A stretch of 64,000 nt of DNA from Antedon mediterranea (Eukaryota; Animalia; Echinodermata): positions 4,836,001 to 4,900,000 of the forward strand of contig NC_092673.1 of NCBI RefSeq assembly GCF_964355755.1, given 5' to 3'. The position numbers and the translations under genes were made by a program. The stretch's first letter is position 1; each line of letters begins with the position of its first letter. The notes below the pieces were generated by a model that made no database searches, was not told the DNA's origin, and saw only the letters and a program-made list of their open reading frames with translations. This document shows, one piece after another, positions 12,047 to 61,900 of this stretch.

Positions 12047-13178
12047 GGTGGTCTTAATTTCGTAATTATTCAATTACTTAAACTACGACAAACTATTTCA
12101 TTGGAACTTTTTTTAATAGTCCAACGAAAATGCGTTTGTTTGAAGTTAATCGATAGACATCTTAAGCCCTCAGTTCGTCAACTGAGGGCATGATAAGATG
12201 CGTGCTGAGGGAGAATGGATGGGTGACATCATCGGCAACTATCGTGGCAAGAATGTGAAACAGCACCAAGCTGGTTGCAAAAGTCATGTTGTTCTAATTA
12301 CAGTTCATGTTGCCAAGTTCGATGTTGATTCTCAACCTAGTTTTTGTTTAAAAAGCAAAGAGTTTATATTTTTAAAATATTTCTAAACTTAAGTTTTTCC
12401 TTCAAAAAGATTTAAAATTGTCTGCTATTTTGTATATTACAGTTAGGCCCATGATTTTTACCTGTTTTAAATACAAAATGTATAACATTCAGCAGTTATT
12501 TATTGCGTAATAACACACAGTTTGAAGCTGTTTTATTTCAGCACAAAATGTTGACATGAACAATAATTAAATATTTCCTGGTGACACATTGCTTTGTCAA
12601 AACTATAAATTAGCCAAAAATATGATATTCAAATGCAGGTGTTATTATGCGCAATTTGAACGATTTGGTAAATTGAAATTGCGCAAGAAAATCTGCCTGC
12701 AATAGGCCTAATTTATATATCACACACAATGTTAAATGAATTAGTAAATAAAAGTGTACAGATTACAGAACAGTATTACATAATATCATTTACATTAATT
12801 GCATCATTCAATTAAAAAAATGTTTACTTTTAAATAATAAGTAGTATGTCAATATATAAAGGGCGTAACTGGGCCTTGGCTAACATGGATCGGCGTAGCT
12901 AGGTCCAGCCTAGGCTATATCTATATTTTTATTTTAGGCAGGGCCAGCCCTTTTCTCTCTCTCCTAGCCTAGCAGAATAGCTAGCATAGAGAAGGGGAGA
13001 AGGCTAGGCTACTAGGCCTAGACCTAACGCTAGCCTGATTTTGGATATATAAAATCAAGTTTTGCACAATTGAATAAGAACATAACAATTTGTGCATAAT
13101 TAAAATATAATTCAACTTTTAAAAAACATATAAACCAATAGAAATTCAATAGTTTCAATTAAAATTTTGCCTACGTAC

Positions 13179-15199: not shown

Positions 15200-15465
15200 C
15201 AGTAACTGTATTTTACTAGGTTCGTTAACTGTATTTTACTAGGTTAGTTACTTGTATTTCACTAGGTTAGTTAACTGTATTTTACTAGGTTAGATACCTG
15301 TATTTCACTAGGTTAGTTAACTGTATTTCACTAGGTTAGTTAGTTAACTGTATTTTACTAGGTTAGTTAGTTAACTGTATTTTACCAGGTTAGTTACCTG
15401 TATTTCACTAGGTTAGTTAGTTAACTGTAGTTTACTAGGTTAGTTACCTGTATTTTACTAGGTTT
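15200..15465. repeat. Minisatellite, ~23-28-bp unit (GTTAACTGTATTTTACTAGGTTA), in the probable BIN3 3' UTR
   Basis: About 10 tandem copies of CTGTATTT(T/C)ACTAGGTTAG with variable GTTA spacers, ~160 bp downstream of the BIN3 stop codon. Confidence 0.9.
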
Positions 15466-15625
15466 AGGTAACACACAAGTACAAGTGATGCAACTGGTGG
15501 TATTCTCTTATTTAAAGGTTACAAAGTAACAGGTTGGCTAGTCTAGGTTAATTATTACTAAACATTGCAAACTGGACTAGGACCAAAATACTGCCTTTGG
15601 TCACCGATTCAACATCAAATGGAGT

Positions 15626-34500: not shown

Positions 34501-35081
34501 AAATACCAAGTAATGAACAGCCAGTTAGAGACTCAGGAATGGTAATTGAAGGTATAAACCGGAATAATGCACAGTTGCAGAAATTACGTATCGAAGACGA
34601 GACACAAGACGATGCAAAGAAACTTGAAGAGAAAGAATTACCAACCAGAGATAATGAAATCCACAATCAGGTTGGTCTTCTTTACCCCCATGAGAAATCC
34701 TCATCATCGTTGATCGATGAATTTGATGGCGCTCTTAAGCATACAAAGAAAAAAAGACGCAAGTTTAAGCGATCAAAGAAACTAAATGATTCTGATTGTT
34801 TTCCTATTCCCGAACACATCAAAAGTGAAGAATCATTCTTAGACGGTAGCGACGTGGAACAAGCTAGCCTCACCTTTGATGAAAACGTGGTGCAAAGTAG
34901 TTTGTCAAATCTGCAGGTGATTGCTAGACAGCAGGCTACAGCATTTGTAGATCTGAAGAGAGGAATTGATCTTCAGATGCAACTGGTGCAGGCTAGACTG
35001 CTAAAGCTGGAGGAGGATTCGAAAGGAAACAAGCAAATGTTGGAAAGAATTGAACATCTTCTAGAAAAAAAAAGTCTTTGA
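19597..35081 (+). CDS. TRPM: TRPM-family (melastatin) cation channel, 22 exons, about 1457 aa, no recognisable NUDT9H or kinase domain
   Basis: Exons 19597-19797, 20860-20954, 21434-21683, 21945-22109, 22426-22629, 24872-25058, 25175-25343, 25438-25576, 25892-25964, 26840-26940, 27664-27852, 28200-28350, 28550-28715, 29128-29265, 29535-29886, 30738-30866, 31436-31690, 32086-32263, 33063-33204, 33754-33941, 34031-34163, 34313-35081 (4374 nt, phases consistent). Motifs: SWIATTFFKKEC/CCCGR, PTDAFGKIEF, ISVAGGTKNF, GAWIISTG, LDPHHTHFLLIDDG, EGTGRAADLLA, QLKLALSWGRVDVA, PFRELFLWAVL, FYNAPVTKF, S2 EEFRQ, S3 WNWID, LGPKMVMI, pore PYFQILGELFLE, S6 NVLLLNLLIAIF, post-TRP RPAIPAPF. Subtype not assignable by eye. 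Confidence 0.93.
19827..20153. mobile_element. MITE with ~53-bp TIRs and TAA TSD (PIF/Harbinger-type)
   Basis: TGCACTTGTCAATTGTATGACCCACTATACGACCCCCGGGAGAGGTGCGTCAT ... ATGACGCACCTCTCCCGGGGGTTGTATAGTGGGTCATACAATTGACAAGTGCA (1 mismatch); TAA on both flanks; internal TGACGCAC repeats. Confidence 0.88.
20205..20820. mobile_element. Non-autonomous TIR element flanked by TTAA (Kolobok-like)
   Basis: TTAA|AGATGTATTGTCCCT ... GGAGGACAATATATTG|TTAA; related copies at 16163-16470, 32320-32589 and 63820-64000. Kolobok label inferred from the TTAA target and purine termini. Confidence 0.6.
21752..21898. mobile_element. MITE family A (TIR AGCTCTGTCTACACTATCAAACT), TAA TSD
   Basis: TAA|AGCCTTGTCTACACTATCAAAC ... 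TTGATAGTGTAGGCAGAGCT|TAA, with internal CATATCACTACCATATTTGGG subrepeats. Confidence 0.85.
22633..24433. mobile_element. 1.8-kb non-autonomous Tc1/mariner-type element, TA TSD, inserted in a TRPM splice donor
   Basis: TA|CAGTACTGACTACATATCATATACCA ... TGGTACATGATTTGTAGTCAGTACTG|TA (26-bp TIR, 2 mismatches); subterminal TTTTACACG motifs; CpG-richer than flanks; no transposase ORF. Confidence 0.85.
26162..26503. mobile_element. MITE with ~35-bp TIRs and an internal ~135-bp direct duplication
   Basis: AGGCCATCTCAGACAGCATCATACAACGAGGCCAGAC ... GTCAGGCCTCGTTATACGACGCTGTCTGAGTTGGCCT; TCAGACAGCATC...AATAACTAT repeated at ~26170 and ~26304; flanks TTA/TTT. Confidence 0.8.
27425..27604. mobile_element. 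MITE family A, TTA TSD
   Basis: TTA|AGCTCTGTCTACACTATTAAACT ... AGTTTGATAGTGTAGACAGAGCT|TTA. Confidence 0.9.
30185..30344. mobile_element. MITE family A (reverse orientation)
   Basis: Both TIRs present; internal CCCAAATAT(G/A)GTAGTGATAT repeats. Confidence 0.85.
30553..30665 (+). mobile_element. 5'-truncated SINE fragment, same family as 58434-58720
   Basis: CATCTTTCAAGACGAGTAGGGGTTACCCAGGTGTACTAGT...CTGGGCCCTCTGGGAGA...GACTGAAGAGGTCACCCAGTATAAA aligns with ~58580-58693. Confidence 0.8.
30979..31372. mobile_element. Degenerate MITE with AATAGTAACCC subterminal repeats
   Basis: AATTCC...TAATAGTAACCCC at left versus GGGTTACAATTAGATTACGGAATT at right; about 7 direct and 2 inverted copies of ATA(G/A)TAACCC. 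Confidence 0.6.
32320..32589. mobile_element. AGATGTATTGTCCC-family (Kolobok-like) element, reverse orientation
   Basis: AGATGTATTGTCCGCCTGAAA ... TTTTGGGGGACAATACATGT|TTAA. Confidence 0.55.
33595..33717. mobile_element. MITE family A, one end lost
   Basis: Internal GTGATATGCCCAAATAT repeats and right TIR AGTTTGATAGTGTAGACAGAGCC. Confidence 0.75.
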
Positions 35082-35317
35082 AAATATAGAAGTACCATAT
35101 GAGAAAATGTAGGTCATCACTCGATTCTATTTACGTCTTTTATCTGAATAACATAAGTCATACAATAATTAGTATACTATGTGCTTTGTGTACAGAACAA
35201 CTCAATAAACAAACTCTACTATGTGACCGCACCTTCTGAAACCAATTGTCTTAATTTGCCTTCTATGTTTAAGGAACCAGCTGTATTATGAACCATATTA
35301 TCAAGAATCCTTGCTTA

Positions 35318-35930: not shown

Positions 35931-36049
35931 AGCCCTGTCTACACTATCAAACTTTATGTGAAATGTGATTTGCTTATATATGGACACGATGACATCATAT
36001 CACGAACATATTTGGGCTCATCACTCAGTTTGATATTGTAGACAGAGCT
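35931..36049. mobile_element. MITE family A, internally deleted
   Basis: AGCCCTGTCTACACTATCAAACT ... AGTTTGATATTGTAGACAGAGCT. Confidence 0.85.
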
Positions 36050-36796: not shown

Positions 36797-38123
36797 TAGC
36801 CTGGGTGCAGTACAAATTTTGCGGGAAAAAAGTATAGGAAAATTTTTTTTATATTTTTCTGATAGAGTATACCATATAGAATGTCAGAAAAAAAATCCCC
36901 ATCCCAGGGTCTTGGGGAAATTTTTTTACGGCCTTTTTAAATTTTGGCCTATATAACACACACAAATGCCTATTAACACACACAAATACCTATATAGGGG
37001 ATAGGGAAAACCAATTCATGTTTTTTTTTACTTGGAGTTGTGTTATGATGATTAAAATTTGCTGAGGCTTACTTTAATAACTACTTCTAATATTGGTTAA
37101 TAAATCAAGTCGATAACAATGACATCATCATGCCAGAATCCAATATGGCGTCAAATTTGGCGGAAAAAACAGGGTATTGCTAAACCCCCGCAAACCCTTG
37201 CAAACCTCCAAAAAAAACATAGCAAACCCCACCGAACCAACATAAAAGTGATTGAATCATGTAGTGTACGACCCACTGGGTATATCCATGTTTAAAAAAA
37301 AATTAATTTCTACTGTTAACTACTTATTTTTTGGGTAAAACATCATTTTTTGGTAAAAAATGATTGCTAAACCCTGCAAACCTAAAAAAAAACATAGCAA
37401 ATCCCACTGAACCAACATAATAAAAGTGATTGAATCATGTAGTGTACGACTCACTGGGTATATCCATGTTTAAAAAAAAATAAAATTTCTACTGTTAACG
37501 ACTTATTTTTGGGGTAAAATATCATTTTTGGTAAAAAATGATTGCTAATTTTTAACAAAAAAATTATGTTTTAACCCAAAAATAAGTAGTTAACAGTGGA
37601 AATTTTAAATTTTTTTTAACATGAACATATCCAGTGGGCCGTACACTCCATGATTCAATCACTTTTATGTTGGTTCGGTGGGGTTTTCTATGTTTTTTTA
37701 GAGGTTTCCAGGGGTTTGCGGGGGTTTAGCAATACCCTGTTTTTCCCACTAAATTGGACGCCATATTGGATTCTGGCATGATGATGTCATCGTATCGACT
37801 TGATTCATCAACTACTATGAGAAGTAGTTATTAAAGTAAGCCTCTACTAATTTTAATCATAAAAACACAACTGCAAGTAACAAAAACTGTTAATTGATTT
37901 TCCCTATCCCATATATATAGGTTTTTGTGTGTGTTAATAGGAATTTGTGTGTGTTATATAGGCCAAAATTTAAAAGTGCCATAAAAAATTTTCCCCAAGA
38001 CCCTGAGATGGGGATTTTTTTTCTGACATTCTATATGGTATACTCTATTAGAAAAACCAAAAAAAAATTTTCCTATACTTTTTCCCCGCAAATGTGTATA
38101 ATAATTGTTCTGCACCCAGGCTA
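36797..38123. mobile_element. 1.33-kb foldback element with ~570-bp inverted arms (TAGCCTGGGTGCAG termini), ATA flanks
   Basis: 36797-~37370 is the reverse complement of ~37545-38123 with scattered mismatches; the centre (~37363-37548) is a direct duplicate of the inner left arm; ATA on both flanks. Confidence 0.88.
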
Positions 38124-38735: not shown

Positions 38736-40995
38736 CATCATCGTTCTTTTTAATAGGGCAAGCACGTGTCCGTCTGGTTATGTTTTCTGTTACGCTGCTA
38801 AAACTAATAAAACCAAGATGGATATATATGTTCAAATGCAGTACACGAATTAGTGTGGCTATATTAGATTGGTACATTTCGTGTTATTTTATACTAGATA
38901 TTTATATTGTAGGACTATATATTTATTCAATGTATGTGATATATTGTGAGATAGACGATTTTGTACACATTTATTTTACTTTTTAAACCCTAAAATGGTC
39001 AGTTAGGCCTTCATAATAATACAATAATAACCAGTAAAATAGTTTTGATCCAACCATTGAGGGATTATTTTAACATTAACTAATTCCTCTATGCTTCAAT
39101 TATGGATGTATAAAATTTATTAAACTCATTATAGTTTCATCACGGTCCTTTTGTTCTGATGCCGCTACACGTCATCCCCACAATCATTTCCTATATAAAA
39201 TTATCCTTTTATAAACACGACTTGATCGTTGCTGTACTACCGTGTCGAATGTCGTTAAATGTCAACCTTCACTTTATTTATTTCGATACACAATCACAGT
39301 CTTCTAAGTTACGAATCTGTTTCTCAACTTCTTTGTACTAAAATTAAAAAAAGATTACCATTATTCGTTACTATGTAGTTTATGTAGATGTTAATTTTCT
39401 CTATAAACTATAAGAGACAAGGATAACTTAGATTAAAATGTTTGTCTCGCTCGTGACCGGTCTCACGACTCTGCCTCAAACGTTTATTTCGTTTAATTCA
39501 TGCTTTGTCTTGTTTCTCTTTATATTAGTAATACAGTATTTGTTTTAATGTAAGACCTACTCTATCTTTCAATTTGTATTTATTTGATGTTATCATCGAA
39601 CAAGTTTGTTAAACAAATCACCACTCTCCTCATCTGGGATATTCTCTATTGATTTACTCATACTCATACTCGATATAGAGGGGGCCAAATTTTGCATATA
39701 ATTTGCATGTAATTAACAAGGTGTGCAGTATGACAGGTGATACAACGGCGTCGCGTGTGTAAACGTTACCGCTAAACTCACGGGGTGTAATTAATTTAAT
39801 TTATTGTATTAAATAGTTTAAAGTTGAATAAAGTAATTGAAATTTGTTTATGATGATGTTCCTTTCGCGTATTATTCATTCCTGCGCACGACGTCTTGGC
39901 CAAGCCTTGAACTATGACATTACGTACTTAGGTATGTTACTTCAATTATTGTTTCCAAGCTAGCCAGGTGGACAGTCGGGACACTTTCAAACAAATATGC
40001 AAATAAACTTACTCTTTTACTAAGGCTGTGTGCTGTTCGTTTTAAATCCAATATTTTTTCTTCTAATTCGTTATGATCTCGACATCTAATGCAGTAATTG
40101 TCTAAAATGACCGTAAAATAATAATATAAAGTTACTTCCCTCCACCTTATGTTTATGTACGCTTAGAGGAAAATTATTACATGTTGTCTGATTATATGCG
40201 ATATATGAACCAGTCATAGCCCACGATCTCTAAGTATATTATTTAAACTCAATATTATTATGTAGGCCTACTATGCGTATACGACGCGTAATATATTAAA
40301 ACTTACCAGCCACGGGAACCTTTTCCTTACACTGTGCTTGGAATACGAGCAAACAAGCCACCAAAACTATAAATAAAATGTTTTTCATGTTTATATTTGT
40401 CACTTCGTCTCTCCTTGTCACTTTCACTGCTCGCAGTACGATAGAATAACGTGATAACCGGATGCCCTGGCTTCAAAAGTACGATCTATATGACAATTAT
40501 ACAGGGCTATTTACCCTTGAAAAAATATAAACGGGATGTAACGCTTCCTTAGATTCCATTTTGCGGTATAATTAAAAACCTTAACGTTGATAAAACGCAT
40601 TTATTAATTATTTATGAAGAAACTGTACATTGTAACATTGGAATCATAAAATATATTAAAAAAAGGATAGATGTTGTTTAAAATAAGATTATGTGCGTTA
40701 TTCAATGTTATCCGTATCGACTGCCTGTATAGTTGAAACAATTTATCGAATTTTTAAAGTGATCGTAATTCTTTTTTCTTGTAATGAATGTTTGTTGTAG
40801 CCTATTCAGTGTTAGTTTTAAAGTTTGTCACAAAAAACAGATGGATTCCTCTTATTAACATACATGACCTTTGACATCATTATTGTATAAAGTTCCGCTG
40901 TAAATACCGACGCGTCGTCCCCTCGACAACCCCACGTAATGTGTTGTATTGAATTCACATTAAAAACTAATATTTAATTAGTATTTTTATTCAAA

Positions 40996-43900
40996 ATGAA
41001 TATATCGGGAAATATTCTATCATCAGTGGTGCAGACGCGGTCAATTGAAAGAGTTTTAGCACCTATCGCGGCTCAAGTAAGTATTTTTTGGCTAGGCCAA
41101 GCAGTCAAACAGAGAGAGGCTGGTTGTTTACACTCACACAGCGCAATACAGCCACAGCGGCCGCACCACCATTTAGCATGATGAGTAGGCCTAGGCTTGA
41201 TATTTTAAAAACTAGATGGTATTTTATATACCGGCGTGAAGTTGGTTACTTATTCCTTATTCGATATTCAATTTTTTTTGTGAAGTTGGATCCTTATTCG
41301 GCATTCACATTCACATGTATGGGGCGCAATATGTGTAATATTTTAATTAAATGATTTTATACTTACGGCTTAGATTAACTAGGGCTATGATTTATATTTA
41401 TATTTATATTTAAAACCTTACTACAATTTAACGTTTTTATAAAAAATGCAATATAACCGGATGATATATAAGGCTATAATTACGTTATAAACGGCATAGA
41501 CCGGGATGACGATACATGGGTTGGAGTGAGTAGGATCCAGTCATTTCAGAAAATTTTCTCTTGCCCCGGTCCATGCCGTCTAGCTGTCATTTTACGCCAT
41601 TTTAAAACGTTACTACAATTTAACGTTTTTTAAATAAAAAATGCAATATAACAGGATGATATATAGGGCTATAATTACGTTATAAACGGCATGGACCGGG
41701 ATGACGATACATGGGTTGGGGCAAGTAGGGTCCAGTCAATTCAGAAAAATACCACTTGCCCCGGTCCATGCCGTCTAGCTATCATTTTACGCCATTTTAA
41801 AACGTTACTACAATTTAAGGTTTTTTTAAATAAAAAATGCAATATAACAGGATGATATATAGGGCTATAATTACGTTATAAACGGCATGGACCGGGATGA
41901 CGATACATGGGTTGGGGCGAGTAGGGTCCAGTCATTTCAGAAAAATACCACTTGCCCCGGTCCATGCCGTCTAGCTGTCATTTTACGCCATTTTAAAACG
42001 TTACCGGTACTACAATTTAATTTTTTTAAATAAAAAATGCAATATAACCGAATGATTTATAGGGCTATAATTACGTTATAAACGGCATGGACCGGGATGA
42101 CGATACATGGGTTGGGGCAAGTAGGGTCCAGTAGTTTCAGAAAAATACCACTTGACCCGGTCCATGCCATCTAGTTGCCATTTCACGCCATTTTAAAACC
42201 TTACTACAATTTAACGTTTGTAAAAAAATGCAATATAACCGGATGAAATATAGGGTTATAATTACGTTATAAACGGCATGGACCGGGATGACGATACATG
42301 GGTTGGGGCGAGAAGGGTCCAGTGATTTAAGAAAAATACATCTTATCCCGGTCCATGCCGTCTAGCTGTCATTTTACGCCATTTTAAAACGTTACTACAA
42401 TTTAAGGTTTTCATAAAAAATGCAATGTAAACGTATGATTTATAGGGCTATAATTACGTTATAAACGGCATGGACCGGGATGACGATACATGGGTTGGGG
42501 CAAGTAGGGTCCAGTCAATTCAGAAAAATACCACTTGCCCTGGTCCATGCCGTCTAGCTATCATTTTACGCCATTTTAAAACGTTACTACAATTTAACGG
42601 GTTTTTTTTTATAAAAAATGCAATATAACCGAATGATTTATAGGGCTATAATTACGTTATAAACGGCATGGACCGGGATGACGATACATGGGTTGGGGCT
42701 AGTAGGGTCCAGTCTTTTCAGAAAAATACCACTTGCCCCGGTCCATGCCGTCTAGCTGCCATTTCACGTCATTTTAAAACCTTACTACAATTTAACGTTT
42801 TTATAAAAAATGCAATATAACCGGATGATATATAAGGCTATAATTACGTTATAAACGGCATGAACCGGGATGACGATACATGGGTTGGAGTGAGTAGGAT
42901 CCAGTCATTTCAGAAAATTTTCTCTTGCCCCGGTCCATGCCGTCTAGCTGTAATTTTACGCCATTTTAAAACGTTACTACAATTTAACGTTTTTTAAATA
43001 AAAAATGCAATATAACATGATGATATATAGGGCTATAATTACGATATAAACGGCATGGACCGGGATGACGATACATGGGTTGGGGCAAGTAGGGTCCAGT
43101 CAATTCAGAAAAATACCACTTGCCCCGGTCCATGCCGTCTAGCTATCATTTTACGCCATTTTAAAACGTTACTACAATTTAAGGTTTTTTTAAATAAAAA
43201 ATGCAATATAACAGGATGATATATAGGGCTATAATTACGTTATAAACGGCATGGACCGGGATGACGATACATGGGTTGGGGCGAGTAGGGTCCAGTCATT
43301 TCAGAAAAATACCACTTGCCCCGGTCCATGCCGTCTAGCTGTCATTTTACGCCATTTTAAAACGTTACCGGTACTACAATTTAATTTTTTTAAATAAAAA
43401 ATGCAATATAACCGAATGATTTATAGGGCTATAATTACGTTATAAACGGCATGGACCGGGATGACGATACATGGGTTGGGGCTAGTAGGGTCCAGTAGTT
43501 TCAGAAAAATACCACTTGACCCGGTCCATGCCATCTAGTTGCCATTTCACGCCATTTTAAAACCTTACTACAATTTAACGTTTGTAAAAAAATGCAATAT
43601 AACCGGATGAAATATAGGGTTATAATTACGTTATAAACGGCATGGACCGGGATGACGATACATGGGTTGGGGCGAGAAGGGTCCAGTGATTTAAGAAAAA
43701 TACATCTTACCCCGGTCCATGCCGTCTAGCTGTCATTTTACGCCATTTTAAAACGTTACTACAATTTAAGGTTTTCATAAAAAATGCAATGTAAACGTAT
43801 GATTTATAGGGCTATAATTACGTTATAAACGGCATGGACCGGGATGACGATACATGGGTTGGGGCAAGTAGGGTCCAGTCAATTCAGAAAAATACCACTT

Positions 43901-46900
43901 GCCCTGGTCCATGCCGTCTAGCTATCATTTTACGCCATTTTAAAACGTTACTACAATTTAACGGGTTTTTTTTTATAAAAAATGCAATATAACCGAATGA
44001 TTTATAGGGCTATAATTACGTTATAAACGGCATGGACCGGGATGACGATACATGGGTTGGGGCTAGTAGGGTCCAGTCTTTTCAGAAAAATACCACTTGC
44101 CCCGGTCCATGCCGTCTAGCTGCCATTTCACGTCATTTTAAAACCTTACTACAATTTAACGTTTTTATAAAAAATGCAATATAACCGGATGATATATAAG
44201 GCTATAATTACGTTATAAACGGCATAGACCGGGATGACGATACATGGGTTGGAGTGAGTAGGATCCAGTCATTTCAGAAAATTTTCTCTTGCCCCGGTCC
44301 ATGCCGTCTAGCTGTCATTTTACGCCATTTTAAAACGTTACTACAATTTAACGTTTTTTAAATAAAAAATGCAATATAACAGGATGATATATAGGGCTAT
44401 AATTACGTTATAAACGGAATGAACCGGGATGACGATACATGGGTTGGGGCGAGTAGGGTCCAGTCATTTCAGAAAAATACCTCTTACCCCGGTCCATGCC
44501 GTCTAGCTGTCATTTTACGCCATTTTAAAACGTTACTACAATTTAAGGTTTTCATAAAAAATGCAATGTAAACGTATGATTTATAGGGCTATAATTACGT
44601 TATAAACGGCATGGACCGGGATGACGATACATGGGTTGGGGCAAGTAGAGTCCAGTCAATTCAGAAAATTACCACTTGCCCCTGTCCATGCCGTCTAGCT
44701 ATCATTTTACGCCATTTTAAAACGTTACTACAATTTAACGTTTTTTTATAAAAAATGCAATATAACCGAATGATTTATAGGGCTATAATTACGTTATAAA
44801 CGGCATGGACCGGGATGACGATACATGGGTTGGGGCTAGTAGGGTCCAGTCGTTTCAGAAAAATACCACTTGACCCGGTCCATGCCGTTTATAACGTAAT
44901 TATAGCCCTATATATCATCCTGTTATATTGCATTTTTTTTTAAAAAAAAACGTTAAATTGTAGTAACGTTTTGAAATGGCGTAAAATGATAGCTAGACGG
45001 CATGGACCGGGGCAAGTGGTATTTTTCTGAATTGACTGGACCCTACTTGCCCCAACCGATATATCGTCATCCCGGTCCATGCCGTTTATAACGTAATTAT
45101 AGCCCTATAAATCATTCGGTTATATTGCATTTTTTATAAATAAAAACGTTAAATTGTAGTAACGTTTTAAAATGGCGTAAAATGATAGCTAGACGGCATG
45201 GACCGGGGCAAGTGGTATTTTTCTGAATTGACTGGACCCTACTTGCCCCAACCCATGTATCGTCATCCCGGTCCATGCCGTTTATAACGTAATTATAGCC
45301 CTATACATCATACGTTTACATTGCATTTTTTATGAAAACCTTAAATTGTAGTAACGTTTTAAAATGGCGTAAAATGGTAGCTAGACGGCATGGACCGGGG
45401 TAAGAGGTATTTTTCTGAAATGACTGGACCCTGCTCGCCCCAACCCATGTATCGTCATCCCGGTCCATGCCGTTTATAACGTAATTATAGCCCTATAAAT
45501 CATTCGGTTATATTGCATTTTTTATAAAAAAAAACGATAAATTGTAGTAACGTTTTAAAATGGCGTAAAATGATAGCTAGACGGCATGGACCGGGGCAAG
45601 TGGTATTTTTCTGAATTGACTGGACCCTACTAGCCCCAACCCATGTATCGTCATCCCGGTCCATGCCGTTTATAACGTATTTATAGCCCTATAAATCATT
45701 CGGTTATATTGCATTTTTTATTTTTAAAAATTAAATTGTAGGACCGGTAACGTTTTAAAATGGAGTAAAATGATAGCTAGAAGACATGGACCGGGGCAAG
45801 TGGTATTTTTCTGAATTGACTGGACCCTACTTGCCCCAACCCATGTATCGTCATCCCGGTCCATGCCGTTTATAACGTAATTATAGCCCTATAAATCATT
45901 CGGTTATATTGCATTTTTTTATAAAAAAACACGTTAAATTGTAGTAACGTTTTAAAATGGCGTAAAATGATAGCTAGACGGTATGGACCGGGACAAGTGG
46001 TATTTTTCTGAATTGATTGGACCCTACTTGCCCCAACCCATGTATCGTCATCCCGGTCCATGCCGTTTATAACGTAATTATAGCCCTATACATCATACGT
46101 TTACATTGCATTTTTTATGAAAACCTTAAATTGTAGTAACGTTTTAAAATGGCGTAAAATGACAGCTAGACGGCATGGACCGGGGTAAGAGGTATTTTTC
46201 TGAAATGACTGGACCCTACTCGCCCCAACCCATGTATCGTCATCCCGGTCCATGCCGTTTATAACGTAATTACAGCCCTATATATCATCCGGTTATATTG
46301 CATTTTTTATAAAAACGTTAAATTGTAGTAAGGTTTTAAAATGGCGTGAAATGGCAGCTAGACGGCATGGACCGGGTCAAGTGGTATTTTTCTGAAACTA
46401 CTGGACCCTACTAGCCCCAACCCATGTATCGTCATCCCGGTCCATGCCGTTTATAACGTAATTATAGCCCTATAAATCATTCGGTTATATTGCATTTTTT
46501 ATTTAAAAAAAACGTTAAATTGTAGTAACAGTAACGTTTTAAAATGGTTTAAAATGACAGCTAGACGGCATGGACCGGGGCAAGTGGTATTTTTCTGAAA
46601 TGAATGGACCCTACTCGCCCCAACCCATGTATCGTTATCCCGGTCCATGCCGTTTATAACGTAATTATAGCCCTATATATCATCCTGTTATATTGCATTT
46701 TTTATTTTAAAAAACGTTAAATTGTAGTAACGTTTTGAAATGGCATAAAATGATAGCTAGACGGCATGGACCAGGGCAAGTGGTATTTTTCTGAATTGAC
46801 TGGACCCTACTTGCCCCAACCGATGTATCGTCATCCCGGTCCATGCCGTTTATAACGTAATTATAGCCCTATAAATCATTCGGTTATATTGCATTTTTTT

Positions 46901-49900
46901 ATAAAAAAACACGTTAAATTGTAGTAACGTTTTAAAATGGCGTAAAATGATAGCTAGACGGCATGGACCGGGGTAAGAGGTATTTTTCTGAAATGACTGG
47001 ACCCTGCTCGCCCCAACCCATGTATCGTCATCCCGGTCCATGCCGTTTATAACGTAATTACAGCCCTATATATCATCCGGTTATATTGCATTTTTTATAA
47101 AAACGTTAAATTGTAGTAAGGTTTTAAAATGGCGTGAAATGGCAGCTAGACGGCATGGACCGGGTCAAGTGGTATTTTTCTGAAACTACTGGACCCTACT
47201 AGCCCCAACCCATGTATCGTCATCCCGGTCCATGCCGTTTATAACGTAATTATAGCCCTATAAATCATTCGGTTATATTGCATTTTTTATTTAAAAAAAA
47301 CGTTAAATTGTAGTAACAGTAACGTTTTAAAATGGTTTAAAATGACAGCTAGACGGCATGGACCGGGTCAAGTGGTATTTTTCTGAAACTACTGGACCCT
47401 ACTAGCCCCAACCCATGTATCGTCATCCCGGTCCATGCCGTTTATAACGTAATTATAGCCCTATAAATCATTCGGTTATATTGCATTTTTTATTTTAAAA
47501 AACCGTTAAATTGTAGTAGCGTTTTAAAATGGCGTAAAATGATAGCTAGACGGCATGGACCGGGGCAAGTGGTATTTTTCTGAATTGACTGGACCCTACT
47601 TGCCCCAACCCATGTATCGTCATCCCGGTCCATGCCGTTTATAACGTAATTATAGCCCTATAAATCATTCGGTTATATTGCATTTTTTTTATAAAAAAAC
47701 ACGTTAAATTGTAGTAACGTTTTAAAATGGCGTAAAATGATAGCTAGACGGCATGGACCGGGGCAAGTGGTATTTTTCTGAATTGACTGGACCCTACTTG
47801 CCCCAACTCATGTATCGTCATCCCGGTCCATGCCGTTTATAACGTAATTATAGCCCTATAAATCATTCGGTTATATTGCATTTTTTTATAAAAAAACACG
47901 TTAAATTGTAGTAACGTTTTAAAATGGCGTAAAATGATAGCTAGACGGCATGGACCGGGACAAGTGGTATTTTTCTGAATTGACTGGACCCTACTTGCCC
48001 AACCCATGTATCGTCATCCCGGTCCATGCCGTTTATAACGTAATTATAGCCCTATACATCATACGTTTACATTGCATTTTTTATGAAAACCTTAAATTGT
48101 AGTAACGTTTTAAAATGGCGTAAAATGACAGCTAGACGGCATGGACCGGGGTAAGAGGTATTTTTCTGAAATGACTGGACCCTACTCGCCCCAACCCATG
48201 TATCGTCATCCCGGTCCATGCCGTTTATAACGTAATTACAGCCCTATATATCATCCGGTTATATTGCATTTTTTATAAAAACGTTAAATTGTAGTAAGGT
48301 TTTAAAATGGCGTGAAATGGCAGCTAGACGGCATGGACCGGGTCAAGTGGTGTTTTTCTGAAACTACTGGACCCTACTAGCCCCAACCCATGTATCGTCA
48401 TCCCGGTCCATGCCGTTTATAACGTAATTATAGCCCTATAAATCATTCGGTTATATTGCATTTTTTATAAAAAAAAACCCGTTAAATTGTAGTAACGTTT
48501 TAAAATGGCGTAAAATGATAGCTAAATGGCATGGACCGGGGCAAGTGGTATTTTTCTGAATTGACTGGACCCTACTTGCCCCAACCCATGTATCGTCATC
48601 CCGGTCCATGCCGTTTATAACGTAATTATAGCCCTATACATCATACGTTTACATTGCATTTTTTATGAAAACCTTAAATTGTAGTAACGTTTTAAAATGG
48701 CGTAAAATGACAGCTAGACGGCATGGACCGGGGTAAGAGGTATTTTTCTGAAATGACTGGACCCTACTCGCCCCAACCCATGTATCGTCATCCCGTTCCA
48801 TGCCGTTTATAACGTAATTACAGCCCTATATATCATCCGGTTATATTGCATTTTTTATAAAAACGTTAAATTGTAGTAAGGTTTTAAAATGGCGTGAAAT
48901 GGCAGCTAGACGGCATGGACCGGGTCAAGTGGTTTTTTCTGAAACTACTGGACCCTACTAGCCCCAACCCATGTATCGTCATCCCGGTCCATGCCGTTTA
49001 TAACGTAATTATAGCCCTATAAATCATTCGGTTATATTGCATTTTTTATTTAAAAAAAACGTTAAATTGTAGTAACAGTAACGTTTTAAAATGGTTTAAA
49101 ATGACAGCTAGACGGCATGGACCGGGGCAAGTGGTATTTTTCTGAAATGAATGGACCCTACTCGCCCCAACCCATGTATCGTTATCCCGGTCCATGCCGT
49201 TTATAACGTAATTATAGCCCTATAAATCATTCGGTTATATTGCATTTTTTTATAAAAAAACACGTTAAATTGTAGTAACGTTTTAAAATGGCGTAAAATG
49301 ATAGCTAGACGGCATGGACCGGGGTAAGAGGTATTTTTCTGAAATGACTGGACCCTGCTCGCCCCAACCCATGTATCGTCATCCCGGTCCATGCCGTTTA
49401 TAACGTAATTACAGCCCTATATATCATCCGGTTATATTGCATTTTTTATAAAAACGTTAAATTGTAGTAAGGTTTTAAAATGGCGTGAAATGGCAGCTAG
49501 ACGGCATGGACCGGGTCAAGTGGTATTTTTCTGAAACTACTGGACCCTACTAGCCCCAACCCATGTATCGTCATCCCGGTCCATGCCGTTTATAACGTAA
49601 TTATAGCCCTATAAATCATTCGGTTATATTGCATTTTTTATTTTAAAAAACCGTTAAATTGTAGTAGCGTTTTAAAATGGCGTAAAATGATAGCTAGACG
49701 GCATGGACCGGGGCAAGTGGTATTTTTCTGAATTGACTGGACCCTACTTGCCCCAACCCATGTATCGTCATCCCGGTCCATGCCGTTTATAACGTAATTA
49801 TAGCCCTATAAATCATTCGGTTATATAGCATTTTTTTATAAAAAAACACGTTAAATTGTAGTAACGTTTTAAAATGGCGTAAAATGATAGCTAGACGGCA

Positions 49901-52900
49901 TGGACCGGGGCAAGTGGTATTTTTCTGAATTGACTGGACCCTACTTGCCCCAACCGATGTATCGTCATCCCGGTCCATGCCGTTTATAACGTAATTATAG
50001 CCCTATAAATAATTCAGTTATATTGCATTTTTTTATAAAAAAACACGTTAAATTGTAGTAACGTTTTAAAATGGCGTAAAATGATAGCTAGACGGCATGG
50101 ACCGGGACAAGTGGTATTTTTCTGAATTGACTGGACCCTACTTGCCCCAACCCATGTATCGTCATCCCGGTCCATGCCGTTTATAACGTAATTATAGCCC
50201 TATACATCATACGTTTACATTGCATTTTTTATGAAAACCTTATATTGTAGTAACGTTTTAAAATGGCGTAAAATGACAGCTAGACGGCATGGACCGGGGT
50301 AAGAGGTATTTTTCTGAAATGACTGGACCCTACTCGCCCCAACCCATGTATCGTCATCCCGGTCCATGCCGTTTATAACGTAATTACAGCCCTATGTATC
50401 ATCCGGTTATATAGCATTTTTTATAAAAACGTTAAATTGTAGTAAGGTTTTAAAATGGCGTGAAATGGCAGCTAGACGGCATGGACCGGGTAAAGTGGTA
50501 TTTTTCTGAAACTACTGGACCCTACTAGCCCCAACCCATGTATCGTCATCCCGGTCCATGCCGTTTATAACGTAATTATAGCCCTATAAATCATTCGGTT
50601 ATATTGCATTTTTTATAAAAAAAAAACCGTTAAATTGTAGTAACGTTTTAAAATGGCGTAAAATGATAGCTAAATGGCATGGACCGGGGCAAGTGGTATT
50701 TTTCTGAATTGACTGGACCCTACTTGCCCCAACCCATGTATCGTCATCCCGGTCCATGCCGTTTATAACGTAATTATAGCCCTATACATCATACGTTTAC
50801 ATTGCATTTTTTATGAAAACCTTAAATTGTAGTAACGTTTTAAAATGGCGTAAAATGACAGCTAGACGGCATGGACCGGGGTAAGAGGTATTTTTCTGAA
50901 ATTACTGGACCCTACTCGCCCCAACCCATGTATCGTCATCCCGGTCCATGCCGTTTATAACGTAATTACAGCCCTATATATCATCCGGTTATATTGCATT
51001 TTTTATAACAACGTTAAATTGTAGTAAGGTTTTAAAATGGCGTGAAATGGCAGCTAGACGGCATGGACCGGGTCAAGTGGTATTTTTCTGAAACTACTGG
51101 ACCCTACTAGCCCCAACCCATGTATCGTCATCCCGGTCCATGCCGTTTATAACGTAATTATAGCCCTATAAATCATTCGGTTATATTGCATTTTGTATTT
51201 AAAAAAACCGTTAAATTGTAGTAACAGTCACGTTTTAAAATGGCTTAAAATGACAGCTAGACGGCATGGACCGGGGCAAGTGGTATTTTTCTGAAATGAA
51301 TGGACCCTACTCGCCCCAACCCATGTATCGTTATCCCGGTCCATGCCGTTTATAACGTAATTATAGCCCTATATATCATCCTGTTATATTGCATTTTTTA
51401 TTTTAAAAAACGTTAAATTGTAGTAACGTTTTGAAATGGCGTAAAATGATAGCTAGACGGCATGGACCGGGGCAAGTGGTATTTTTCTGAATTGACTGGA
51501 CCCTACTTGCCCCAACCGATGTATCGTCATCCCGGTCCATGCCGTTTATAACGTAATTATAGCCCTATAAATCATTCGGTTATATTGCATTTTTTTATAA
51601 AAAAACACGTTAAATTGTAGTAACGTTTTAAAATGGCGTAAAATGATAGCTAGACGGCATGGACCGGGGCAAGTGGTATTTTTCTGAATTGACTGGACCC
51701 TACTTGCCCCAACCGATGTATCGTCATCCCGGTCCATGCCGTTTATAACGTAATTATAGCCCTATAAATCATTCGGTTATATTGCATTTTTTTATAAAAA
51801 AACACGTTAAATTGTAGTAACGTTTTAAAATGGCGTAAAATGATAGCTAGACGGCATGGACCGGGACAAGTGGTATTTTTCTGAATTGACTGGACCCTAC
51901 TTGCCCCAACCCATGTATCGTCATCCCGGTCCATGCCGTTTATAACGTAATTATAGCCCTATACATCATACGTTTACATTGCATTTTTTATGAAAACCTT
52001 AAATTGTAGTAACGTTTTAAAATGGCGTAAAATGACAGCTAGACGGCATGGACCGGGGTAAGAGGTATTTTTCTGAAATGACTGGACCCTACTCGCCCCA
52101 ACCCATGTATCGTCATCCCGGTCCATGCCGTTTATAACGTAATTACAGCCCTATATATCATCCGGTTATATTGCATTTTTTATAAAAACGTTAAATTGTA
52201 GTAAGGTTTTAAAATGGCGTGAAATGGCAGCTAGACGGCATGGACCGGGTAAAGTGGTATTTTTCTGAAACTACTGGACCCTACTAGCCCCAACCCATGT
52301 ATCGTCATCCCGGTCCATGCCGTTTATAACGTAATTATAGCCCTATAAATCATTCGGTTATATTGCATTTTTTATAAAAAAAAAACCCGTTAAATTGTAG
52401 TAACGTTTTAAAATGGCGTAAAATGATAGCTAAATGGCATGGACCGGGGCAAGTGGTATTTTTCTGAATTGACTGGACCCTACTTGCCCCAACCCATGTA
52501 TCGTCATCCCGGTCCATGCCGTTTATAACGTAATTATAGCCCTATACATCATACGTTTACATTGCATTTTTTATGAAAACCTTAAATTGTAGTAACGTTT
52601 TAAAATGGAGTAAAATGACAGCTAGACGGCATGGACCGGGGTAAGAGGTATTTTTCTGAAATAACTGGACCCTACTCGCCCCAACCCATGTATCGTCATC
52701 TCGGTCCATGCCGTTTATAACGTAATTATAGCCCTATATTTCATCCGGTTATATTGCAATTTTTATAAAAACGTGAAATTGTAGTAAGGTTTTAAAATGG
52801 CGTGAAATGGCAGCTAGACGGCATGGACCGGGTCAAGTGGTATTTTTTTTAAACTACTGGACCCTACTAGCCCCAACCCATGTATCGTCATCCCGGTCCA

Positions 52901-55900
52901 TGCCGTTTATAACGTATTTATAGCCCTATATATCATCCTGTTATATTGAATTTTTATTTAAAAAAACGTTAAATTGTAGTAACGTTTTAAAATGGCGTAA
53001 AATGACAGCTAGACGGCATGGACCGAGGCAAGTGGTATTTTTCTGAAACGACATGACCCTACTAGCCCCAACCCATGTATCGTCATCCCGGTCCATGCCG
53101 TTTATAACGTAATTATAGCCCTATAAATCATACGGTTATATTGCATTTTTTTATAAAAAAAACTTAAATTGTGGTAACGTTTTAAAATGGTGTAAAATGG
53201 CAGCTAGACGGCATGGACCGGGGCAAGTGGTATTTTTCTGAAATGACTAGATCCTACTCGCCCCAATCCATGTATCGTCATCCCGGTCCATGCCGTTTAT
53301 CACGTCATTATAGCCCTATAAATCATCCGGTTATATTGCATTTTTTATTTTAAAAAACGTTAAATTGTAGTAAGGTTTTAAAATGGCGTAAAATGACAGG
53401 TAGACGGCATGGACCGGGGCAAGTGGTTTTTTTCTGAAACGACTGGACCCTACTAGCCCGAACCCATGTATCGTCATCCCGGTCCATGCCGTTTATAACG
53501 AAGTTATAGCCCTATAAATCATAGCCCTAGTTAATCTAAGCCGTAAGTATAAAATCATTTAATTAAAATATTACACATATTGCGCCCCATACATGTGAAT
53601 GTGAATGTCGAATAAGGATCCAACTTCACAAAAAAAATTGAATATCGAATAAGGAATAAGTAACCAACTTCACGCCGGTATTTTATATATGCACTGTACA
53701 TCCATGTTACACCTAACCTTAATTAAAGATAATTAAATCTCAGGTACTGTACAGATGTAGGATCGATCCCAAAAGTATTTTCACCTGGCAATTAATTTAA
53801 AATGTTGAATTTTCTGAAACCTTTCTATTGAAAATGAAAAATTATATCTTCATAGCTAGGCCTAGTAGTTTTTTATAATTATATTTTTTATGAAATTTAT
53901 TTTTGTGCTTTACATGTATTGTATTGTCAAGGGCCCCAATTATCAGCTTAGCTGGATGGGCTACCCTAATAAAACATGGTTCAATAAGATAAAAATTAAT
54001 AATAATTAATTGTTTTGCTTGTTTACAGGTGTCACAGCTAATCATTTTAAACGAAAGTGCAAAAGACACCCCAGGAAGTCTACCAAATCTAAGTTCTCAT
54101 GCTCAGTCCGTCCGCAAAGCCACAGAGGAGTTGGTGCTTGTGGGTCAAAGACTTGCTAAAGACTCAAAAGATGAAGTAAGTAGGCCTACCTGTACCAGTA
54201 TGCTTTTGTCATTTTACTTTCTTGAAAAATCCATTAGACACACGGTGACTGGTTGATAGCAGTGGGAAATAATTAAATCATATGATAACCTATATACCAA
54301 ATATTGATAATCCTCGCCAACCATCCTAACAATGATATATTCAAGATTTAACATAATTCCATTTCTTCTTTCAGGAGCTAAGAAAATCGATGCCAAAAGC
54401 TTGTGAGATGATAGATACTGCAGGAAATAGCATGATGCTGGCATCACAGATCCTGCAGACACAGCCTGAGAATAGTGGGGCAAGAGAGAACTTGGTGAAG
54501 GCTGCAAGAGATGTCCTGGAAGGTACAATGAAGGTGTGTATCATAAGAATAATCGCAGGCAAATTAAATAAAATGCAAAAGATTCAGATTCAGCACATTT
54601 TTAGGCCCATATTCTTAAGCTCTGTCTACACTATCAAACTAGTTTATGTGCCCAAATATGGCAGTGATATACATTAAAATAATATGATAGTGATATATAA
54701 AAATAAATAAATAAATAAATAATATGATAGTGATTTGACATTATCATGTCTATATAGGGGCACATCACATTTTTTTGTCACATAAAGTTTGATAGTGTAG
54801 ACAGAGCTTTAGTCAACTCTCAGAAAACCAAATACACCTTTGGCCGATCCAAACTGATATCTGCAGATTACATTGTGCATTTCAGAAGATTTGTGTGTTC
54901 TAGTGTTTTTGTTTTCGATGGAATTGATATTATTTCAATAATATATTGATTAATTTTACAATATCAGACTTTTAGTACAAGGTAATAATTTTGTTCAAAA
55001 ACTTTTTTTTAATTTATATTTTTTAGGTCATGCTGATTACAGATGATACAGAAGTGCGCAAAATAGTTCGTGCAGCACACTGGACAATTGATAGACTGAC
55101 CCTTCTCAAGTCTGTTGAGACTATGAAGACTTTAGTAGAAAGCTTTAAGGTAAAGACAAGTCGCTTGGATTATTCAAAACAAAAGAACCCCTCTCCCACC
55201 TTTTTTAAAATTTATTCATTCAAAAATATCGTAATCACAGCACAAGGCTGAACACTAACAATATTAACAATAATTTAAAAATACAGATATAAAATATCAA
55301 AAATATAATACACAATTAAAAAATGGTAAATGACAAAAAAAAATCATATGCTGAGTCAAAGAACTTTGTTTGGCTTTTAGGGTTTTACAGAAGCAATAAT
55401 GCTATTATCAAGTCTTTGTGATAAACGTCAACAAGATCTCACACAGCAGCAGCCTAAACAACGATTGCTGGTTGCTATGTCAACGCTCAAGAAGGCGACA
55501 CCCATGCTCAGCAGTATCATGCAGTCATTTGTGAAGTATCCAAAGAGTTCACAAGCCAAGGTTAGTGGTGTTTAAGTGTTGTATTGAGTTTTAGTAGTTG
55601 ACATTGTTTAATCAAGAAGAGTATAAATACAAGTTACTGTACCTAACTTTACACTACCTTTTGTTTTACCAATTGATTGTAAAATCATATTATGATACTT
55701 GGTATGATCAACTAGTATTCATGTTCCCAATGAATCATCCATTCATAAAAGTACTGATGAATAAGTCAATCAGTGGCGATTACAGAATGGACCAGAGACC
55801 TGACTTTCGTCGACTTTCAAATGATAGAAAATTTTGAATTTTTTGTTAGGATAGAAATATACAATGACTGTATGGAGAAATGTATGGTGCAAAGTATAGT

Positions 55901-58900: not shown

Positions 58901-61900
58901 GCAGACCTTGAACTTCTTTCTGAAGCTGCCAACTGCATGCTGGGAAGGGCCAAACGTGTGATACAAGTTGCAATGAAGGAAGTGGACAGCAGTAAAGACC
59001 CAGTCTACAGAAATGGTGTTTTAGTTTTTGTAAACCAGCTGCAGAAAGGTATTGTTTAGCTGTTCAATTTCTTTGACTTAATCTTCCATCATTCATTCAT
59101 GACTACTTAGAATATTAGCCTCTTGGAGACCTTTAAAAAAACAAGCTAGGCCAAGTTGGGCTAACTGCACATAGGTGGCCAATAATCAACTTTACTAATA
59201 AAACAACACTTGATGTGTCTATTGTCTTTATCCTCGGATTAGACATGATCGCCATAAGCCGATGAATATTTTTTCTAAAGAGAGCCAAAGAGCTGGTTGA
59301 AGAACTGTATTGTTTTTATGACAATGTTTTTGTATATTGTTTGAAGGTTTGCATGGCGAAATCAAATATTGATATAAAGTTTGCAGTACACCACGTGTAT
59401 TAGTTCTGAAAAGAACTGTTGAGTTTCTCGACGTTTCGATCAATATACTTTGATCGTAGTATAATATTTTTAAAATTATATTTATGCTTTGAATATATTT
59501 TCTAGTAATTCCAGTTGTGAAGGATGCAGCTAACAATGCACTAGAACACATAAACCAGGAGTCGGCGCATACAAAGCTAGCAGAGAAGGCCAATGAACTG
59601 TTAGAGTGCATTGAAGATGTACATGAAGGCTTAGACCCTAGGTCACATCCAAACATACTGAGCCCTCTCAGGAGTAATGTGAGGGACGATAGACATTCAA
59701 GACTGGAGGGTATGTTACACCACATTATGTGTTTCTGAAGATCTATCTATATTATCAAACTTTATGTGAAAAAAAATGTAATGTGCCCATATATGGACAT
59801 GATGATGTCATCACTACTATATTTGGACATCACTACCATATTTGGGCACATCACACTTTTTTTGTCAAACTAGTTTGATATTGTAGACAGAACTTTAGTT
59901 GGTCAAACCAAATTATGTTTTGATTTTACGATCAACCAGAACATTGCAATCACACAAAGGTTCTGAAATATGATATCTTCTATTTGATTTTGTAATATAC
60001 ATGATTTAATTTAGGTTCACTTGTTGTACCAGCATCACGAAGACCAATCCAACACAATGAGAGTTACCTGAGCAATCCTCTTCCAAAATGTTCTGGAATC
60101 GTTGATGTCCAACCTTCTACAATTGATTTTGATTCTTCTGCTGTAGCAAACAGCATCTCTGGTATTATGCAAGACATGAGCTTGATGAACCGTACCGCTA
60201 AGACAAAGGCAGAGGCATCATATGCATGTAAGTCTACCCTGAAGGACTTGCCACAGAACCATGTTTTGTTGTAAAATAAATAAACTATATCAATTTCTTT
60301 CAAGATTTTAACTAATGTGGGACCAACATTTTATTTATTAGTAATGCCCAAAAACCTTCGCCATCCGATGGTTCGTCTTATGAAGGCAGTGTATAAGATG
60401 GACAGTGTTGAAGTGGATGCATGTAACAACATTGTGTTAGAACAAACCAGGTTAATAACAGACTTAGCATTGAGACTTGCTGACTCACTTAATGATACAG
60501 AAATCAAAAGGTAAGCAATATATAGTGTGAAGGAAGGTATAACGCAAGTTTGTATTTAAGTATATGTTCCTTATGATGCAATTGTGATTGTATAGTGGAT
60601 AAACAGACTCAAAATCATTGGAGTAGAAGACGTATAAACTTACCAAAAAATCTAGTATTTATTTGAGACTTTTTTTTAAGCTCTGTCTACACTATCAAAT
60701 TTATGTGAAAAAAAATGTGATGTGCCCATATACTGTATTCACATGATGATTTCATATCACTACCATATTTGGGTAAATCCAACCATATTTGGGCACATTA
60801 CATTTTTTGGTCAAACTAGATGGAGCATTAACGACCATCTTATCAATCCCCTCTCCAACACACGAACATGCTTTCTCTAGTATCAACACCCTCTATAGGA
60901 GAGTGACTATTGAAAAGGTTACAGTACAATATGGTATATAAACTGCAGTATATGGGGTGCTGAAAGTTCCACCATCTGCAGTCAGTGTCATGATTGAATG
61001 TATTTGAGGGCCCTTTCTGCATTAACATGTTGCAAACATGACTGATGTTATAGATCATGCCTTCATAGTTTTCTTTCTGTTATGTAAATGGGGGAAGAGG
61101 TGTGGACGACACATAACACAACTTTCTACTCCTCTAAGGGTCCCTTTTGTCGAGTGCTTCCACCAAAATGGCGCCCGTTCATCTGCAACAGGGTTTCCGT
61201 GTATGGTTGGTTGGTAGTAACAGATTTTTAATAGTGCAAACCTGTTAATTGTTTATTCATTTTTCTTCAGACATATGAAGGCACAAGCTGAGAATTTGTT
61301 AGACTTTGTACCACAAGTAATGGGAACTGCTAAAGCATCTCTTTTAAAAGAGGACAGATTCAAAGCAGAGGCTCATTTGATGGTTGAAGATTGGACAGAT
61401 AAGATGAATAGTCTCATAAAATGCATCAGTGATGCCACTAATGTGTGGTTTAGTGTTGTTAACAAGTCGTTGAAGTTTGCCAAGGCCGGTGATAACAAGA
61501 ATTTGAACCATCAGGTGAGTAAAATCATATAATATATAAAATCTCTACAGATCACACAGTGTAAAAATAATACCTGTATTTGTATAAAAAAAGTATTGCT
61601 TAATTTGGACTTATAATTCTGAATCTAATGCAGTTTACATATACAGTACAAGAAATTTTAATAAATTCAGATAGATATCACCATTAGTATCTTGATGTTT
61701 TTTCATTTTTGTAAGACAATGTCTTGGCAAGAGTCCATATTATCATATATATATTATTACATCGTTTAAATTATTTTATGTAAATAATTTCAAGCATACA
61801 GTTACTAATGCTAATGCTGTATTTGTTTATATTCATAGTTGGAACAACTAGACATCCACATGCAGATTCTCCGTCAAACGGTGACATCAACTATAGAATC

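Follow-up and report, generated by a model that had tools for sequence, protein, structure and literature searches.

A satellite-bearing foldback transposon in the first intron of a vinculin-family gene of the crinoid Antedon mediterranea

The element and its host gene

We analysed 64,000 nucleotides of the crinoid Antedon mediterranea (NCBI RefSeq assembly GCF_964355755.1, contig NC_092673.1, positions 4,836,001 to 4,900,000 of the forward strand), hereafter the window, with positions counted from its first letter. An earlier, sequence-only reading had described a foldback transposon made of inverted tandem arrays inside intron 1 of a vinculin-family gene. The gene assignment was borne out: Pfam Vinculin was matched by six of the seven exon-sized pieces scanned from the gene, the exception being the 27-residue first exon, and one exon matched catenin alpha-2-like of A. 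mediterranea with 100% identity across 91% of the query (87% for a protein of Anneissia japonica). The protein P0002 aligns to the window exon by exon, with mismatches close to the exon edges. The element occupies 12,450 bp (41230–53679) of intron 1 (Table 1). Without it and one copy of its flanking duplication the intron measures 493 bp, against an earlier estimate of about 0.5 kb, and is thus similar to the next six introns of the gene (~0.2–0.5 kb from the spacing of exon matches). The element is without evident function for the host gene, and no effect on that gene is shown.

The ends are two terminal inverted repeats (TIRs) of 167 bp that differ by a single substitution, close to the ~165 bp and one mismatch first proposed. 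There is no third copy within the window. Of these ends, first described as unique, the inner ~15 bp are the sequence of a unit end. Both flanks carry the same 9 bp, ATTTTATAT; among 2 million pairs of positions drawn at random elsewhere in the window, a fraction of 3.4e-5 matched exactly over 9 bp. Each TIR also holds two copies of a 20-bp subterminal motif, which are inferred candidates for transposase-binding sites.

Between the TIRs lies nothing but units of ~195 bp, and 97% of the 12.45 kb is repeat. Tandem Repeats Finder gave 17.9 forward and 44.2 reverse copies, in agreement with the ~62 (~18 and ~44) counted before. Unit comparisons were made on the 61 full anchor-to-anchor units (17 + 44; 191–203 bp each, with a mean of 8.7 substitutions from the consensus), a set that omits the incomplete units at the left end (truncated) and at the centre (partial). 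The right TIR passes directly into a unit while the first unit on the left is partly replaced by TTTATA repeats, both as originally read. Coding capacity was lacking: the longest stop-to-stop frame within the element has 74 residues, and of the 70 frames listed, a scan of 12 further long ones showed no transposase domain.

The CpG observed/expected ratio is 1.29 inside the element and 0.57 in the rest of the window. An identity with any Rfam family was rejected, all 19 weak matches being generic hairpins far below gathering scores. In exact-pattern scans the TIR end was absent from metagenome and viral contigs, and the unit motif from metagenome contigs.

Composition of the two arms

The same unit types occur in both arms: 39 variants are common to the two, which points to shared ancestry, and another 16 and 20 are confined to the left and the right arm, respectively. 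Their order differs. A substitution-free twin was present in the same arm for 26 of the 61 units and in the opposite arm for none, and the nearest neighbour was closer in the own arm for 56 units and in the opposite arm for four. Mirror pairs differed by 14.1 substitutions versus 13.9 for any left–right pair, and when the arms were compared in register from the TIR side no diagonal matched, the best having a mean of 10.9 substitutions versus 13.9 overall. A 7-unit block stands out in the left arm, with a distance of 3.1 at lag 7 compared with 12–17 at the other lags up to 13; the most diverged units of the right arm are the three that adjoin the TIR. Given the different order of the types, the twins confined to one arm and mirror pairs as distant as random ones, we conclude that each arm lengthened separately, presumably through unequal exchange or slippage, as proposed for Tetris (PMC4079207) and Galileo (PMC3573991).

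The junction between the arms

Every unit carries a 15-bp inverted repeat around a 59-bp loop. The repeat is perfect in 43 of the 61 units and its variability (0.8–1.4%) is below that of the loop (5.5%) and the tail (8.7%). When a unit is compared with its own reverse complement, no exact direct match is longer than this repeat, and the next best is 9 bp. At the centre of the element, a forward unit passes its second copy of this repeat and then continues as the reverse complement of the unit start. The switch in orientation is not random but falls on the unit's own inverted repeat, and the meeting of the arms at the longest direct match between them makes it likely that a middle part was deleted there. 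Deletion or annealing at the 15-bp match gives the observed junction without requiring mirror arms.

Other copies in read-derived contigs

We compared the left end of the element (40200–41600) with contigs from four of nine listed runs. X1 and X2 represent one sample, X5 the same organism in another study, and X6 a related organism, B, in a third study; X5 and X6 are independent, and the stretches of flank that they leave uncovered are uninformative. X7–X9, whose shares are small, carry no weight here. Positions 41379–41420 were skipped as repeats, and the TIR-to-unit junction of other copies falls outside the comparison.

The TIR was joined to unlike flanks in all four runs. Letters unlike the window precede 41230 in X1 record 3 (278 letters), X2 record 10 (269) and X6 record 29 (220), as well as in two X5 contigs. 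X1 record 3 and X2 record 10 fit the window from exactly 41230 onward, X2 record 11 and X5 record 20 themselves start there, and the fit of X6 record 29 starts two bases further. Records stop where the contigs fork, as at the variant at 40552, on one side of which X1 record 1 ends and on the other X1 record 2 begins. With a constant base at 41230 and a variable one before it, the terminus reads ACCGG and the duplication is 9 bp long. The exact flanking duplication reported earlier thus stands, and its length, previously given as 7, 9 or 11 bp depending on the terminus chosen, is narrowed to 9 bp, the other two being ruled out by the contig starts at 41230. The G at 41301 is private to the left TIR: the right TIR, most of the X1 TIR depth and all of X2, X5 and X6 have A.

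Summed contig depth over the TIR was ~35x (X1), 24x (X2) and 18x (X6) that of the adjacent flank, and over the unit it exceeded 1,100x; as these ratios are rough, are not copy numbers and use a flank figure that may be haploid or diploid, we take from them no more than that the ends number in the tens and the units above a thousand. Depth measures abundance only, and satellite DNA proper would form large free-standing arrays beyond transposon ends. Across the four runs there were ~36–190 units per TIR pair, which brackets the 62 of the present element, a ratio that a small number of big arrays holding most of the units would give as well. Depth rises further, 4x in X1, over the first ~40 bp of the TIR (41230–41269), and loose ends occur at 41269. 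The 20-bp subterminal motif is also present in loose ends of related contigs, and one of those at 41269 repeats it; together with the extra depth, this means that a wider and more abundant family, whose members continue into further copies of the motif, shares the TIR tip, and these 40 bp are the best lead to an autonomous partner with a transposase.

An allele without the insertion is predicted to fit the window through 41230 and to fail at 41231. X1 record 2, which has variants of the other haplotype, fits to 41230 and then continues with 37 unlike letters. X2 record 9 stops at 41230, and X6 record 28 departs from the window at 41223 with 40 unlike letters beyond. From these fit positions, all at the left flank and with the unlike letters themselves unseen, we consider the insertion probably heterozygous. 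A contig of X5 matches exon 1 through 41078 and has unlike letters beyond, the position expected of a spliced product; none of the listed runs is on record as RNA and that X5 is RNA is a guess, and this contig is uninformative on the filled allele.

Other repeats and genes in the window

A second, older foldback of 1,327 bp lies 3 kb upstream of the element, its outer arms identical in 370 of 421 columns. It consists of about two forward and one reverse 178-bp units with no evident middle, has ends reading TAGCC...GGCTA and is flanked by ATA on both sides. This 3-bp duplication points to a superfamily other than that of the larger element (AcademX duplications are 3–4 bp; PMC10045372), and the two share no similarity (best E 0.11). 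A smaller, unrelated and equally middle-less foldback at this distance suggests that the plan is not rare in this genome. A family of miniature inverted-repeat transposable elements (MITEs; 119–191 bp, ~23-bp TIRs, TA-rich flanks) with a variable number of an internal 21-bp repeat is the third tandem-repeat-carrying transposon family here. The remaining features are a multi-exon TRPM2-like channel gene, BAR-domain and DUF4603 exons, two short inverted-repeat elements and a minisatellite (Table 1).

Table 1 Positions of the element, its host gene and other features of the window
Feature	Position	Strand	Remark
Coding exon 1, vinculin/alpha-catenin-family host gene	40996..41076	+	First 27 residues of P0002; donor GT at 41077
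Intron 1	41077..54028	+	12,952 bp
Left copy of 9-bp target-site duplication, ATTTTATAT	41221..41229	.	Length set by contig breaks at 41230
Left TIR, 167 bp	41230..41396	+	Starts ACCGGCGTG
20-bp subterminal motif, GTGAAGTTGG(TTA/ATC)CTTATTC	41236–41255, 41280–41299 (left TIR)	+	Two copies per TIR
(TTTATA)3, then 5'-truncated first unit	41391..41470	+	First ~130 bp of unit missing, two extra TTTATA instead
Left arm, 17 full units	41471..44779	+	7-unit block present twice, 0–4 substitutions per unit pair
Centre: perfect 39-bp stem, one 59-bp unit loop (44815–44873)	44776..44912	.	Switch in 15-bp repeat 44874–44888
Right arm, 44 full units	44909..53512	-	Irregular 3–4-unit higher-order blocks
Right TIR, 167 bp	53513..53679	-	
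Right copy of 9-bp duplication, ATTTTATAT	53680..53688	.	
Exon 2 of host gene	54029..54175	+	100% identical to P0002 residues 27–76; Pfam Vinculin
Second foldback	36797–38123		
MITE copies	21752–21898, 27425–27604, 30185–30344, 35931–36049, 54618–54808, 59739–59894, 62063–62206		Seven paired among 9 left-end and 9 right-end motif matches
TRPM2-like channel gene, multi-exon	~24900–35100	+	Pfam TRPM2 and Ion_trans matches
BAR-domain exons	15626–16892	-	
DUF4603 N-terminal exon	11720–12073	-	
979-residue open frame	848–3787	-	No Pfam match; likely large exon of DUF4603 gene
Short inverted-repeat element, 61-bp arms	19826–20154		
Short inverted-repeat element, 62-bp arms	63094–63220		
23-bp minisatellite	15203–15472		

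Interpretation and alternatives

We favour, as probable but well short of certain, the view that the element is a non-coding foldback with two 167-bp ends and opposed arrays of a 195-bp unit, that it belongs to a multi-copy family, and that it was recently pasted into the intron by a transposase made elsewhere, which we infer to be likely of Mutator/Rehavkus type. The sequence-only reading of a young, non-autonomous, multi-copy foldback with a satellite-like repeat is upheld by the two TIRs, by contigs that join the TIR to unlike flanks and by the lack of a long frame. That the 12-kb array moved as one piece goes beyond what is shown here, as the arrays may have lengthened once a shorter element was in place, and so does the type of transposase.

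Several points weigh against the reading that we favour. X1 and X2 may derive from the very source of the window. The 12-kb layout depends on the assembly, because among the listed contigs there is none that spans the array or leads from the present flank into the TIR, and the empty allele rests on left-flank fit positions rather than on the letters themselves or the right flank. Neither a transposase nor a middle-bearing parent was seen in the window or the contigs. The present centre appears in none of the contigs compared for the left-end region, and one X6 contig, from organism B, switches strand elsewhere in the unit (41529/41595), which means that the 15-bp junction is not the family's sole switch point; two further X6 contigs skip 64 and 155 bases. 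As to the enzyme, the present ends begin A-C-C, whereas most ends of Mutator-like elements (MULEs) have G/C in their first three bases and an A-first terminus is atypical of them (PMC13359780); Rehavkus is reported only from arthropods and annelids in the passages relevant here (PMC6446971), a range that does not include a crinoid host; and the 9-bp duplication also agrees with the 9–10 bp of AcademH (PMC10045372).

It is a real possibility, if not the outcome we expect, that only a short element of few units landed and that most of the 62 units were added in place, with most genomic units residing in a few large arrays elsewhere. The duplication of the 7-unit block is very young, its pairs differing by 4, 1, 0, 1, 1, 0, 0 and 4 substitutions, which is of the same order as the one change between the TIRs and counts against a full-size jump; the repeats of Tetris (PMC4079207) and of Tribolium TCsat12 (PMC12581902) likewise expanded from short arrays within an element. 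On the other side stand the arm-private variants and the at least three substitutions that separate even the closest cross-arm units. These need more time than the TIRs and the probable heterozygosity suggest, so that at least several unit types per arm would have arrived with the element. Both this excess of divergence between the arms over that between the TIRs and the ratio of units to TIR pairs, which brackets 62 in all four runs, speak for a jump at full size.

Another enzyme may have produced the same anatomy, although we think it unlikely that AcademH, Merlin or some other non-MULE transposase was responsible. Foldback shape does not fix ancestry, Galileo being P-type (PMC3169594), and, besides AcademH, Merlin has duplications of a fitting length (8–9 bp; PMC8101967). 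However, Merlin ends start 5'-GG (PMC8101967), where the present terminus is ACCGG, and Galileo duplications are 7 bp (PMC3573991), compared with the 9 bp that follow from a terminus at 41230. The long TIR, the repeated subterminal motif and subterminal repeats of ~200 bp agree with descriptions of MULEs and Rehavkus (PMC12581902, PMC6446971, PMC5225508). The element has the TIR of >100 bp and the 8–11-bp duplication of MULEs (PMC6446971, PMC5225508), as well as the 9-bp duplication, TIR length (26–400 bp) and subterminal tandem repeats of Rehavkus (PMC6446971, PMC12581902); filing it under either would take a transposase in an autonomous partner, of MULE-type DDE kind for the former and with a PHD finger for Rehavkus. 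AcademH, which is marked by an Academ transposase plus helicase and by a terminal signature of its family, stays a candidate.

An origin by fold-back priming or template switching at the unit hairpin, by which one arm with its TIR would have been copied in reverse, turning a single end into an element with two ends that never had a middle, seems improbable to us. The centre is indeed a short inverted repeat that continues outward and has the loop as its spacer, none of 200 shuffles of the unit folds as well as the unit itself (z -3.8), and such switching yields palindromic junctions elsewhere (PMC10766186). It predicts mirror arms, however, while the perfect stem here extends over only 39 bp and the units of a mirror pair resemble each other no more than those of a pair taken at random; a recent event of this kind is thereby ruled out, and an old one would fit only with complete later reshuffling. 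That the structure is an assembly artefact, a fold-back chimera or mis-joined repeat, is barely credible: no spanning read was seen and the unit count could be off by a block, but the unique flanks on both sides, the intact exon order, the exact duplication, the non-mirror arms with private variants and the recurrence of TIR and unit in two other studies all argue against it.

For the favoured reading of a recently pasted, non-coding foldback, we propose the following course of events. The starting point would have been a parent built as TIR–units–middle–units–TIR, each of whose arms lengthened separately by unequal exchange or slippage, in blocks of 3–7 units. Its middle would then have been removed where the 15-bp inverted repeat of the unit allows homology-directed deletion or annealing, that repeat being a direct one between opposed arms, and a single unit loop would have been left as the only spacer. 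A transposase acting on the 20-bp subterminal motifs would have cut the element out and pasted it here, duplicating 9 bp, and the insertion would probably still be heterozygous. So understood, the element serves a satellite both as carrier and as a place to grow. A bolder version, which we regard as doubtful, is that the satellite family of >1,000 units consists mainly of one to two dozen self-contained palindromic packets of 7–35 kb that are still moved intact, one of them segregating in a gene, and that the 15-bp repeat repeatedly strips the middle; the satellite array would then be the transposon.

Whether transposition transports full-size satellite arrays or merely seeds them is a question left open in the relevant passages of PMC4079207, PMC12581902 and PMC10218199. 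The present copy is young, euchromatic and fully assembled, its duplication is clean, its units are distinguishable and an empty allele is probable, all of which makes the question testable in one genome. The junction further provides a simple rule for the site at which the middle of a foldback is lost, and this may have a bearing on opposed satellite subarrays in other systems.

Comparison with known systems

Drosophila FB and the sea-urchin element TU, an echinoderm precedent, have the foldback shape and repetitive arms; their repeats are short (10–31 bp) and occupy the outer domain, and they usually have a middle.

Closer in plan is Tetris of Drosophila virilis, a non-autonomous foldback in which each TIR has an outer unique domain followed by ~220-bp tandem repeats, with duplications of 8–10 bp (PMC4079207). 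The present element shares the long modular inverted arms with an outer unique domain and internal tandem repeats, a duplication within that range (9 bp, at the present locus only) and dispersed copies with the same ends, as judged from the unlike flanks in the four runs. Repeat number is unequal between arms in both, in Tetris also between alleles, and Tetris has seeded a satellite (PMC4079207). Unlike the present element, Tetris has an inner and a middle domain, TIRs of up to 1,735 bp and a few repeats (PMC4079207); here the arms abut, with only the 59-bp unit loop between them. In its working the element is thus like Tetris and the satellite-carrying Rehavkus-like elements, though its build differs from that of Tetris.

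Rehavkus-like elements of Tribolium that carry the satellites TfSat06, TfSat23, TfSat25/TCsat12 and TCsat23 resemble it in combining a TIR with a variable number of 140–170-bp tandem repeats in inverted termini (PMC12581902, PMC10218199). These termini reach up to 50 repeats or >11 kb and satellite spread by transposition has been proposed for them (PMC12581902); Rehavkus duplications are 9 bp (PMC6446971). The Tribolium elements have a central part similar to Repbase elements (Fig. S16 legend of PMC12581902), which the present one lacks, and the comparison, between a beetle and a crinoid, is by description and not by sequence. The macro-dyad arrays of TfSat01 in Tribolium freemani are similar in that each, at ~12 kb, comprises two opposed subarrays that differ in length and meet at conserved switch points free of foreign sequence, but they are centromeric, no TIR or duplication is reported in the relevant passages, and they switch between truncated monomers (PMC12581902) rather than on the monomer's own inverted repeat. 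The Mutator/foldback families Muta1 (Aedes) and Tm1 (Meloidogyne) share a ~150-bp TIR, repeated subterminal motifs, 8–9-bp duplications and many non-autonomous derivatives, and differ in having few repeats of 12–15 bp and known autonomous copies (PMC5225508, PMC3169594).

The link between foldback elements and satellite dispersal, whose novelty the sequence-only reading had implied, is the thesis of the Tetris paper (PMC4079207), and termini of >11 kb are on record from Tribolium (PMC12581902). In a literature search that lay outside most subscription papers, Dfam and Repbase, neither the present family nor a satellite foldback capped by TIRs and lacking a middle was found described; Figs S14 and S16 of PMC12581902 may show middle-less copies, which would lessen the novelty. 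The satellite-carrying foldback architecture as such is thus already published, for Drosophila Tetris (PMC4079207) and the Rehavkus-like elements of Tribolium (PMC12581902); what is new here is the absence of a middle domain, the logic of the junction and the echinoderm host.

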